DNA from: Longimicrobiales bacterium
GTDB taxonomy: Bacteria > Gemmatimonadota > Gemmatimonadetes > Longimicrobiales > Gaopeijiaceae
Direction: 5' to 3'
DNA length: 12,640 bases
Assembly: GCA_965197725.1 (NCBI GenBank)
Contig: CBDANQ010000006.1
Location: 1-12,640 of the forward strand
The notes under the pieces are model-generated. The model was given only the letters and a program-made list of their open reading frames with translations, was not told where the DNA came from and ran no database searches. Every line of letters begins with the position of its first letter. Within the stretch, counting starts at the first letter, position 1. A program made the position numbers and the translations under genes. Shown here in pieces: positions 1,534 through 3,450 of this stretch.

Positions 1534-3450
1534 TCACACCACCTTGGCCACACGCAGCACACCGGCTCTCTGCAGAGCTTCGATGTTGACCTTCACGCCG
1601 TCGTCGAGGTCGGGATCCCAGCCATGGGGACGCTCCTCCCCGGCCTTCCACGGCGTGAGAATCCGGTAATCACCTTTCCCGCCCTCCGGGCCGTCGCGGT
1701 ACCCCTCTTGGACTCTCTGGAGGCGTACATCCAACTCCCGAGCCTCTTCGAGTCGTCCCTGCCACTCCTGACGGTCGTCTACCCGTCCAGCCTTGTCGGC
1801 CAGCGCCGCCTCGCGGCGGAATGTTTCCATCGCGTCCCGCACGTACTGCGCCCGGAGTTGCGCCATGCGCTTCTTGTCGAACCGGTGGTAGTGAACCACG
1901 GCGCCGAACGCGAAAGGGGAGGCACCTTGGCTCGATGCAATGTGCCAGAAAATCGGTCGGTTCTTGTAGAGCGAGCAGTGGAACGAAAAGAAGGCACTCT
2001 CCAGCCACGCCGCGATCCCTGTGAAGCGCCGGTAGCCTTTGGCCTTCGTCTTCAGCTCGTTCGCGAGCTCGGCCTCGACGTGCCCCACGTCGAGCTCCGG
2101 AAATAGCGCCTGGAGCTCCCGCTGGACCCGATCGACGAGGCTGGGCTCCCCGGCGACCGGCGCGAACGGCACGATGCCGTCCTCGTCGGCTTCAACTACT
2201 CGCTTGACCGCGTAGGACAGCAGGCGAAACACGTGCTCCATTCGTTTCTGCTCGGGGGTCTTGCCCACCATTTCCGGCCAGATCACCTCTCGCGGACGGT
2301 TGCCGAACTGCTCCTCTATCATGGCGCGCGTCGCCGCCGGAATCCCATACAGTTTGTAGACTTCGTCATTCAACTCAGAGTAGCGCTGCCGGCATTCGTT
2401 CTCCAGCGATCTCTCCTTTACGGTGAGGTGGGCCAGCCGGTTGGCGATCGACCCATGACCTCCGTGATCTTCCATCAATAGCCAGGGCGCGCGAAATGCA
2501 GCCGACACTTCGTTACCAGCATCCCAAGCCGCCTTTGCGTCGTGAATCCCCTTCGCGATGTTCGCCAGCCTCTCCTTATAGTGTGCGGCAAGACGCGGAA
2601 CCGGAATGGATCCTATCGCCGTACCGCCCCAATTTCGCGTCGCTACACACCGGGCAAGCGCGTCGAACAGGGCGCAGTTCATCAGCGCCAAGAAGGCGTC
2701 AATATCCTGACTTTCAGTTGGGAAAAACGTCGGAGAGGCTACGCCGAATACACCTGTCGCAGGCAGCCGTCTCGCGTTCATGCCGAGGATGGTCGTCTGC
2801 ATCCACGTGACCCCTTCGCGGAAATAGTCGCTCTCGGACTTCACGAACCGCGTCGCGCTTCCGTACTTGAGCTTAACGAAATCCTTGAACTCGGCGCCCT
2901 GATCCGTCCAATCGATCACCAAGTCCCAGTCGGTGTAAAACCTGGAGTAGCCACCGCCCTTGGCAAACAGTACCCACCGATGACTCACCTGGGGCGAATC
3001 CACTTCCCATCGCTGACGCGTGAATCGTTCGACTTCTGTCGCATTGAGTCCGTTCCTCGCTATTCCGTACGTCGGAGATAGTGGAGGATGATCGCGAAAT
3101 ATTGGCGCAATCCATGCGATATTTCGGTACACGAGGAGGCTACCCTCGATGAATCCGAAGTCCCGCCGAGCAACGTCATTGCGTATAGAGCGATCCTCTC
3201 CTCTCAAGCTTCGGACGAACATTTCGCAGCGGTGATCCCGCTGATGTCGAGAGCCGCTGAACCGCTCCAGATCGAAGAATGCCGCCTTTTCTCCTTCGGT
3301 GACCACATAGTAGGCCCGTTCCGCCTGTTCGGCCGTGGTGTCGATGCCTTCGCGCGCTTGGGTCGCCTGAAGCGTCGGGATCATGAGCTGCCGACGAAGG
3401 TCCGGGTTGGCGAGGATGCCACGGACGTCGACGCGCCGGCTTCTATCCAT
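1534..3450 (-). CDS. pglX: PglX/BrxX C-terminal half (target-recognition domain + conserved C-terminus) with an N-terminal Fic-antitoxin-like extension
   Basis: 638 aa. PglX-type segments: WVLFAKGGGYSRFY..WDLVIDW..G.EFK, YFREGVTW, LYKNRPIFWHIAS, FGAVVHYHRF and terminal DLDDGVKVNI. No SAM-binding or NPPY motif. ATG overlaps the fic stop by 8 nt (ATGGATAG), with GGAGAGAGG upstream. Confidence 0.85.
   Translation of the reverse strand: MDRSRRVDVRGILANPDLRRQLMIPTLQATQAREGIDTTAEQAERAYYVVTEGEKAAFFDLERFSGSRHQRDHRCEMFVRSLRGEDRSIRNDVARRDFGFIEGSLLVYRNIAWIAPIFRDHPPLSPTYGIARNGLNATEVERFTRQRWEVDSPQVSHRWVLFAKGGGYSRFYTDWDLVIDWTDQGAEFKDFVKLKYGSATRFVKSESDYFREGVTWMQTTILGMNARRLPATGVFGVASPTFFPTESQDIDAFLALMNCALFDALARCVATRNWGGTAIGSIPVPRLAAHYKERLANIAKGIHDAKAAWDAGNEVSAAFRAPWLLMEDHGGHGSIANRLAHLTVKERSLENECRQRYSELNDEVYKLYGIPAATRAMIEEQFGNRPREVIWPEMVGKTPEQKRMEHVFRLLSYAVKRVVEADEDGIVPFAPVAGEPSLVDRVQRELQALFPELDVGHVEAELANELKTKAKGYRRFTGIAAWLESAFFSFHCSLYKNRPIFWHIASSQGASPFAFGAVVHYHRFDKKRMAQLRAQYVRDAMETFRREAALADKAGRVDDRQEWQGRLEEARELDVRLQRVQEGYRDGPEGGKGDYRILTPWKAGEERPHGWDPDLDDGVKVNIEALQRAGVLRVAKVV
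3289..3450 (-). other. Putative FicA/VbhA-like antitoxin domain fused to the PglX C-terminal half
   Basis: Residues 1-54 include RRQLMIPTLQATQAREGIDTTAEQAERAYYVVTEGE. TQAREG (3363-3346) fits the Fic inhibitory motif [S/T]xxxE[G/N] and lies immediately downstream of a fic gene. The motif is short, so the assignment is inferred. Confidence 0.6.

Follow-up and report, generated by a model that had tools for sequence, protein, structure and literature searches.

The DNA analyzed here, a contig of 12,640 bases (C6; CBDANQ010000006.1) from the 89%-complete genome of a Longimicrobiales bacterium (GCA_965197725.1), was studied over its whole length and is referred to below as the window. Three translationally linked open reading frames (ORFs) follow each other on its minus strand: the N-terminal half of pglX, a gene of bacteriophage exclusion (BREX) systems; a gene for a Fic enzyme; and the C-terminal half of pglX (1534-3450, 638 amino acids; Table 1). 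We found that this trio stands at the center of a type 1 BREX variant conserved among related loci, and that the C-terminal half of PglX starts with a small domain, homologous to proteins encoded next to other fic genes, which is likely to serve as an antitoxin for Fic.

A fic gene between the two halves of pglX

The C-terminal half of PglX begins MDRSRRVDVRGILANPDLRRQLMIPTLQATQAREGIDTT. The original prediction, made for its codons 1-54 (3289-3450) and quoting residues 19-39, held that this N-terminus does not resemble PglX and that it contains an inhibitory-helix motif of Fic antitoxins, [S/T]xxxE[G/N]; both points are borne out by our analysis. The PADLOC profiles for PglX align to the C-terminal half only from residues 46-53 onward (residues 46-581 match positions 652-1207 of the 1332 positions of PDLC02527), and the N-terminal half covers positions 144-659 of the same profile. 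The first 45 to 50 residues or so are therefore extra to PglX, with no PglX profile covering residues 1-45. Within this segment, T30-Q-A-R-E34-G35 fits the pattern [ST]xxxE[GN], which occurs once across the three proteins of the trio. Amino acid composition leads one to expect 0.033 copies of the motif in 49 positions and 0.42 copies in the entire protein. By itself, its presence therefore says little; it is its conservation that makes it real.

To assess this conservation, we aligned 53 N-termini of the C-terminal half (that of the window and those of 52 related loci). Q31 and E34 are present in all of them, G35 in 51, R33 in 50 and T30 in 46, with Ser taking the place of T30 in two more. The consensus reads ILADPDLRRKLMVSTIQATQAREGIETTxEQAxRAYYVV, and SSQRQEGIE is retained even in the most distant clade. 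Within the C-terminal half, conservation is highest over residues 8-52, whose mean majority fraction is 0.82, compared to 0.64 for residues 61-638 (28 full-length proteins). AlphaFold2, supplied with a 48-sequence alignment, modeled the segment confidently, with a predicted local distance difference test score (pLDDT) of 86.4 and with helices at residues 9-14, 16-33 and 40-52; E34 and G35 would thus be located at the very end of the long helix. A ribbon-helix-helix fold was also considered for the domain and was rejected, since the model contains no strand.

The Fic protein encoded between the two halves matches the PADLOC model PDLC04839 of the PDC-S04 group (3.5e-27; residues 86-272 on positions 19-200 of 205) and, more weakly, SoFic (3e-9). 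The stretch HPFREGNGR is invariant in the 14 aligned members of this Fic family, so that the catalytic His and the GNGR of the canonical HxFx(D/E)GNGRxxR are present. The best relative of solved structure is VbhT (E 7.2e-11; residues 75-221 of Fic on residues 4-145 of VbhT in the Protein Data Bank [PDB] entry), and a pattern search for [ST]xxxE[GN] in Fic itself gave no match in any of the 14 family members. This Fic protein consequently looks like a class I enzyme, one that needs an inhibitor from outside. The invariant RREDEGVQRA at residues 103-112 was considered as an internal inhibitory helix and discarded; it lacks the Ser or Thr, and its counterpart in the VbhT alignment is the first helix of that protein. 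Residues 1-75 of Fic are strongly conserved (W6, W8, D12, G14-F15-R16 and Y29-Q30 are among the invariant positions), have no counterpart in VbhT, and are strand-rich in a model of poor quality (pLDDT 45). The way in which the stop codon of fic lies within the start of the C-terminal half of pglX suggests that the translation of the two genes is coupled.

Table 1. Positions of the pglX-fic-pglX trio and of associated features in the window
Feature	Position	Strand	Basis
pglX N-terminal half, 687 amino acids: N-terminal region and N6-adenine methyltransferase core (NPPY)	4300..6363	minus	Pfam Eco57I 1.5e-19; PADLOC PDLC02527 1.6e-113
ATGA overlap of the pglX N-terminal half stop and the fic start	4300..4303	minus	ORF coordinates
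fic, 286 amino acids: class-I-like Fic enzyme with family-specific 75-residue N-terminal extension	3443..4303	minus	Pfam Fic 2.9e-11; PADLOC PDC-S04 3.5e-27
Fic active-site motif HPFREGNGRTAF, H212-F223, Phe in place of the canonical second Arg	3635..3670	minus	invariant in 14/14 aligned family members
8-nucleotide overlap ATGGATAG: fic stop within the start of the pglX C-terminal half	3443..3450	minus	ORF coordinates
Antitoxin-like domain, residues 5-52 of the PglX C-terminal half, three predicted helices	3295..3438	minus	conservation, AlphaFold2, hhalign
T30-Q-A-R-E34-G35, [S/T]xxxE[G/N] inhibitory-helix motif	3346..3363	minus	conservation; C-terminal end of predicted helix 16-33
pglX C-terminal half body, residues 53-638: DNA-recognition and C-terminal part of PglX	1534..3294	minus	PADLOC PDLC02521 6.9e-48, PDLC02527 2e-35
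brxL remnants, residues 250-341 and 575-693 of the 697-residue BrxL	950..1533	minus	Pfam BrxL_ATPase 3.1e-32 on a 121-residue ORF; tblastn with the BrxL of locus L014

Conservation of the trio in type 1 BREX loci

Homologues of the window Fic are numerous: we found 791, and among the 119 others listed most are 284-288 amino acids long (range 205-294) and, with the exception of one fragment of 205 residues, 64-76% identical to it. Judged by the names of their sources, they are spread over several phyla. A scan of genome contigs with the Fic alignment, which picked up a generic Fic pattern, gave, among the matches listed, one close locus; 79 others served as a comparison set. Together with metagenome sequences, we assembled 61 related loci, all collected through Fic: one from a genome (L014) and 60 from metagenomes. 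In 53 of the 61, tblastn found the N-terminal half of PglX directly upstream of Fic (60-72% identity), and the remaining eight start inside or at Fic and have no upstream DNA. The C-terminal half was found downstream of Fic in 54 loci by tblastn (37-61% identity) and, when the ORFs were read, in one more (L150), giving 55 of 61. Four of the six loci without the downstream domain lack the flank; in L141 a truncated Fic is followed by another ORF, and the contig of L103 ends inside cargo. PglX-N, Fic and PglX-C are thus adjacent in every related locus whose flanks are present. As far as the contigs reach, the long loci, L096 excepted, have the trio flanked by brxA-brxB-brxC on its upstream side and by pglZ-brxL on its downstream side, and L014 possesses all six type 1 BREX genes by Pfam, with BrxB at 25.4 bits, just below the cut-off. 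The overlap between the fic stop and the start of the C-terminal half is 8, 11 or 14 nucleotides long in 49 of 54 loci and 1-4 nucleotides long in three; of the two loci outside this pattern, one has cargo in between and the other has a stop inside fic.

The slot within pglX accommodates further cargo. A UPF0175 and DUF3368 (PIN-like) pair is located between the N-terminal half and Fic in L101 (3490-4234) and L124 (9256-9994), which indicates that the slot can house two toxin-type modules at once. A HEPN protein and a ParA/STAND-type NTPase are present between Fic and the C-terminal half in L112 and probably also in L103. In four loci, Fic is damaged or lost: L096 has an in-frame stop at codon 173 of fic (and lacks brxB and brxC as well), Fic is truncated in L141 and frameshifted in L153, and L160 keeps only its last 29 codons. 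Where it is visible among these, in L096 and L160, the domain is intact; conversely, an intact Fic with a demonstrably missing domain was found in none of the 55 informative loci. Such asymmetric decay, in which Fic is lost and the domain kept, is what a toxin-antitoxin relation predicts, with the provisos that the numbers are small, that some lesions may be sequencing errors and that the loci were collected through Fic.

We asked whether the domain follows Fic or PglX by searching its profile against 1.84 billion representative sequences. This gave 360 matches, 190 of them at E<=1e-10. None of the best 150 of the 360 matches exceeds 653 amino acids; among these 150, the domain stands either at the N-terminus of proteins of about 630-650 residues or in small proteins, and not inside an unsplit PglX. 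Of 400 genomes sampled within L014's phylum, which is not that of the window, only the L014 genome has the domain. Relatives of the PglX C-terminal half occur in 11 other genomes of this sample, none of them with the domain; ten reside in open frames of 1140-1358 amino acids, i.e., in unsplit proteins. The remaining one (L208; G1081:C95) is a split C-terminal half that lies behind an AAA_21 and DUF4435 pair resembling PARIS (phage anti-restriction-induced system) and has an unrelated N-terminus. The profile matches and the 11 domain-less relatives, the split L208 included, indicate that the segment accompanies Fic rather than PglX or the split state in itself. An occurrence of the segment in unsplit PglX proteins without a fic neighbor, named in the original prediction as one of the findings that would speak against it, was hence not encountered, neither among the best 150 matches nor among the 11 relatives.

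The BREX locus of the window itself has decayed. Of the type 1 gene set (brxA, brxB, brxC, pglX, pglZ, brxL), the window contains only the split pglX and scraps of brxL, and the latter abut the pglX stop, pglZ being deleted there; an oxidoreductase gene lies upstream of pglX. Despite the loss of the remaining BREX genes, pglX-N, fic and pglX-C are full-length and uninterrupted. Elsewhere in the genome, a PglZ-domain match is found in a 528-residue frame (G000:C56:48431-49015), which tblastn shows to be dissimilar to the BREX PglZ of L014. The plus strand of the window (8375-9083) carries a fragment of GmrSD_N (DUF262) that starts at profile position 44 and seems to be continued in another frame; it lies within a stretch of lower G+C content (0.57-0.59 at about 8000-9600, compared to 0.65-0.69 nearby) and is probably a second decayed defense gene.

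Relatives of the domain next to other fic genes and in phage genomes

Hidden Markov models of the domain and of VbhA were run against the ORFs of the 79 comparison loci to trace the relationships of the domain. In nine of these loci, Fic is preceded on its own strand by VbhA-type ORFs. In 19 of the 79, an ORF of 50-70 codons lies immediately after Fic on the opposite strand, the two genes overlapping at their 3' ends by about 10-45 nucleotides; 15 of these small ORFs contain an exact [ST]xxxEG and four contain near variants. Two subtypes can be told apart among them, A6 with 12 sequences and A7 with seven, and no family model recognized their relatives. Examples of such convergent ORFs are L042:1320-1526 (minus strand), L021:10539-10742 and L016:7285-7449; the two subtypes are marked by the sequences TNPYLRDP...SSAVEG and ASFRIEGI. 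Together with Fic, such an ORF would make up a convergent pair resembling a toxin and its antitoxin.

Profile-profile comparison by hhalign related the N-termini of the PglX C-terminal halves (set A2) to A6 with a probability of 95.7% and an E-value of 1e-8, columns 1-43 aligning to columns 1-43. The wider domain family (A4) aligned to A7 (E 6.4e-5), A6 to A7 (E 4.7e-6) and A7 to the Pfam VbhA set (A5; E 7e-5), and the E-G of the motif was aligned in every comparison between the domain, A6, A7 and VbhA sets. These comparisons indicate that the PglX segment belongs to a family of Fic-adjacent small proteins, which is linked stepwise to VbhA. Of the ESM Atlas clusters that bear a Pfam name, YhfG, the antitoxin family of the Escherichia coli Fic, lies nearest to the domain (score 0.84), which we treat as a lead only. 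Among other searches with the domain, we set aside weak matches to DUF4132 and TATA-box-binding proteins, taken as chance, and a profile search of the PDB sequences gave only a 22-residue match to the serine hydrolase 9dee (E 0.0058). Foldseek returned nothing at E<=0.001 when the 64-residue model of the domain was compared with the PDB, the best Z of a wide VIA-align search was 4.5, which is noise level for small helical models, and PHROGs contained no relevant family; the two fold searches do not speak against a VbhA-like fold.

Many matches to the domain profile are proteins of 50-100 amino acids with the form RVDIKAILADPxLRRxLMVxxIxATQAREGIxTTxEQAEAAYDKV. An alignment of the wider family retains Q31 in all 48 sequences, E34 in 46 and G35 in 47. 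A scan of IMG/VR yielded 35 loci, of which three are C-terminal halves of the BREX-Fic type. Among the 32 others, 27 have the domain in a short ORF (55-137 amino acids as called), three in ORFs of 179, 208 and 250 amino acids and one in an ORF of at least 2422 amino acids; no ORF was called in the last. Identity between these viral copies and the window segment reaches 72%. Neither an ORF with a Fic motif nor a tblastn match to the window Fic was found within 4 kb on either side in any of the 32 viral loci, and Pfam Fic was absent from nine whole viral records (138-463 kb; four of them at least 90% complete by CheckV). The genes near the viral copies encode RtcB ligase, RlaP, RadC, helicases, a Sak4-like protein, a sigma factor and integrase, most of the neighbors having no family; such genes are typical of the accessory and replication regions of large phages. 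Since Terminase_6N was found in none of five viral records, the viral status of these loci rests on the IMG/VR and CheckV labels and on PHROG matches for 19 of 68 neighboring ORFs. The ESM Atlas clusters nearest to the domain are labeled 50-100% viral. Searches for stand-alone copies with the domain profile were negative in 400 other genomes of the window's phylum and in 400 of L014's phylum, tblastn found no match to the 64 residues of the window or to one phage copy among GenBank isolate phages, and GenBank plasmids contained no match to the window Fic. The simplest reading of this distribution is that phages carry orphan copies of the antitoxin that may neutralize this Fic.

Two viral contigs deserve mention. 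One, of 32.6 kb and labeled viral (L160:3799-5923), encodes a full PglX C-terminal half with the domain; it is preceded by only the last 29 codons of fic, and no N-terminal half of PglX lies within 4 kb upstream. In the other (L175:869-8137), the domain is embedded in the long frame noted above (at least 2422 amino acids), which has no Pfam match and may encode a phage protein of the polyvalent or injected kind.

A candidate Fic antitoxin built into PglX

Taken as an antitoxin, the domain is well supported by homology and genomic context. The reading that we favor, and judge to be probable, is that a Fic antitoxin is built into PglX, that it holds Fic off via E34 and that Fic would be freed upon loss of the PglX C-terminal half. 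The helical module at the N-terminus of this half is predicted to bind Fic such that E34 enters its nucleotide pocket and keeps the enzyme off, as VbhA does on VbhT. Since the antidote would be part of PglX and appears translationally coupled to fic, Fic would be made together with its inhibitor and probably be tethered to it, and this tether would connect Fic, through the antidote domain, to the DNA-recognition subunit of BREX. Loss, degradation or distortion of the C-terminal half of PglX could then liberate Fic, a presumptive toxin, to modify a target in the host. The likely role of such an arrangement would be twofold: addiction to pglX and, probably, a second arm that acts by abortive infection when a phage attacks PglX. 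An Ocr-like inhibitor might, purely by way of inference in the original prediction, be imagined as the trigger of the guard.

Several observations weigh against this reading. Neither the window segment nor 38 N-termini matched a Pfam or NCBIfam family at E<=10, VbhA (PF18495) and YhfG (PF10832) included; no VbhA chain appeared when the domain profile was searched against the PDB sequences, and PF18495 has no match in the source genome. Direct hhalign comparisons with small VbhA sets are weak (E 0.0092, 0.021 and 0.044), with E34-G35 landing on the E-G of VbhA. The profile search against the VbhA and FicA families that the original prediction had proposed accordingly gave no direct match, and of its claim that an antitoxin is fused to PglX we can uphold the conserved module, its homology to Fic-adjacent small proteins and the class-I-like Fic, but not a direct tie to VbhA or FicA. 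The 19 small ORFs that provide the connection were chosen by visual inspection of the output of a permissive search (E<=50, within 400 nucleotides of Fic), from which four unrelated rows were dropped. The Ser or Thr of the motif is kept in only 30 of the 48 sequences of the wider family, and how often the domain occurs without Fic is not readable from the 61 loci, since these were found through Fic. The AlphaFold2 model of Fic, built from a 14-sequence alignment, is poor (pLDDT 45), and no structural argument was drawn from it. Moreover, the second Arg of the Fic motif is absent, with Phe223 in its place in all 14 family members. This position is Arg in 78 of the 84 motif-bearing ORFs of other Fic loci, and the Fic partners of the A6, A7 and VbhA-type ORFs keep it. 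In the 2012 work of Engel and co-workers, the second Arg is said to pair with the inhibitory Glu and with the gamma-phosphate of ATP. Our main mechanistic doubt therefore concerns what this Fic uses as its substrate and how it is inhibited, both of which may differ from VbhT/VbhA. Finally, homologues of the brxA, brxB, brxC and BREX pglZ genes of L014 were not found anywhere in the 89%-complete genome. The expectation that there is a working BREX for Fic to guard thus fails in this genome, where brxABC and pglZ are gone and brxL is in scraps.

We weighed three other explanations. Fic and its fused antitoxin could form a plain addiction module whose only effect would be to protect the BREX island from a loss of pglX, and which would sense neither phages nor anti-BREX proteins. 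In favor of such a module, the trio has stayed intact in the window while brxABC, pglZ and the greater part of brxL have disappeared, and the pglX slot also takes ordinary toxin-antitoxin pairs such as the UPF0175 and DUF3368 genes of L101 and L124. However, it leaves unexplained both the close stand-alone copies of the domain in Fic-less phage genomes and the fusion to the DNA-recognition half where a free antitoxin would do, and PADLOC scores the relatives of this Fic as defense candidates (PDC-S04); we regard it as improbable. The domain might instead be a docking or assembly element that recruits Fic, or the N-terminal half, to PglX, with Fic being a working accessory enzyme of this BREX variant that modifies a BREX or phage protein and the phage copies acting as competitive decoys that interfere with such assembly. 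The missing second Arg, which is used in canonical Glu-mediated inhibition, the conserved 75-residue extension of Fic and the lack of a direct VbhA or YhfG profile match would all fit. The invariant E-G at the end of the helix does not, nor does the kinship of the domain with small ORFs whose partners are canonical, Arg-keeping Fic genes, and the split PglX of L208, which has other cargo and no such domain, indicates that the halves do not need the domain for their assembly; we grant this explanation only a small chance. That the motif arose by chance in a poorly conserved, functionless leader, or reflects a mis-called start codon, could draw on the expected motif frequencies given above. We consider this already refuted: 52 of 54 loci share the start position and its overlap with the fic stop, E34 is present in all 53 aligned N-termini, no other stretch of the protein is as conserved as residues 8-52, and the domain profile has 190 matches at E<=1e-10.

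Under the favored reading of an antitoxin within PglX, the findings could be extended, tentatively and with some doubt on our part, to an arms race of three layers: an antitoxin built into PglX would leash Fic, an attack on PglX would lead to suicide of the cell, and large environmental phages might leash Fic again with orphan copies that are either free or part of giant proteins. The phage copies are a new, testable extension of the BREX-Fic finding; they may be the first inhibitors of Fic-based defense and, if the proposal is true, the first anti-Fic counter-defense proteins. The locus bears on two questions: by what means BREX blocks phages, and in what way bacteria retaliate against those phages that disable it. 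An antidote that is physically part of the DNA-recognition subunit would be a simple and testable wiring for a guard, with few parts (286 residues of Fic and a domain of 50 residues). Our analysis also defines a small candidate antitoxin domain family unrecognized by Pfam, NCBIfam and PHROGs, and it points to many Fic genes of the PDC-S04 kind with an overlooked convergent partner gene.

The original prediction knew of no described system with this architecture, and, as far as the main texts of the literature go, we found no paper with a Fic between pglX halves or with an antitoxin fused to PglX. The 2026 BREX survey (PMC12839542) does not use the word Fic in its main text, and neither Fic nor PglX is mentioned in that of a study of nested defenses (bioRxiv 10.1101/2024.01.29.577857); this claim to novelty is limited to main texts, since supplements may list this Fic family, e.g., as PDC-S04. 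We likewise found no paper describing the small [S/T]xxxEG ORFs beside Fic genes. These ORFs, which accompany PDC-S04-like Fic genes, are homologous to the N-terminus of the PglX C-terminal half and, like it, directly follow Fic; they differ in being free-standing (50-70 amino acids), on the opposite strand and convergent, and in that their Fic partners keep the second Arg.

The inhibitory-helix mechanism and the three classes of Fic proteins are established, as far as the available parts of these papers describe them (PMC7758455, PMC12249575). The class I pairs VbhT/VbhA of Bartonella schoenbuchensis (3SHG, 3ZC7, 3ZCB) and FicT/FicA (YhfG; 5JFF) resemble the locus studied here in combining a Fic without an internal helix and a partner with an (S/T)xxxEG helix. 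In these pairs, however, the partner is a free protein of about 60 residues, whereas here it is the N-terminus of a 638-residue BREX subunit; the toxin-first gene order, the Fic motif ending in Phe and the additional 75-residue N-terminal region of Fic set the present locus apart as well. The toxin-first order was singled out by the original prediction as the reverse of the usual one. It is present here but not unique: a small gene lies downstream of Fic in the 19 comparison loci described above and in SoFic-AS1 of E. coli H397, a toxic Fic from a defense island with a small antitoxin gene (PMC12249575). As described in the available part of that paper, SoFic belongs to class II and has its own inhibitory helix, AS1 is a free protein of 47 residues, and no link to BREX is mentioned.

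Counter-defense by borrowed antitoxins has a precedent in the phage orphan antitoxins against DarTG, in which a copy of the host antitoxin without the toxin neutralizes the defense (PMC11825919, PMC10760071, as far as their available parts go). DarTG involves another toxin family, and for Fic the case is drawn only from the distribution of the domain. Accessory defenses nested in BREX, in DISARM (defense island system associated with restriction-modification) and in type I restriction-modification loci, such as BrxU, PARIS and PrrC-EcoprrI, have likewise been described (bioRxiv 10.1101/2024.01.29.577857, available part). They share with the present locus a toxin or second defense inside a modification system, which is presumed to be set off once a phage has put the primary defense out of action. 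The restraint of PrrC, in the same available account, is non-covalent and involves whole proteins, whereas here a dedicated candidate antitoxin domain is fused to the specificity subunit; if the proposal is true, BREX-Fic would be the first defense system whose sensor subunit is itself the antitoxin.

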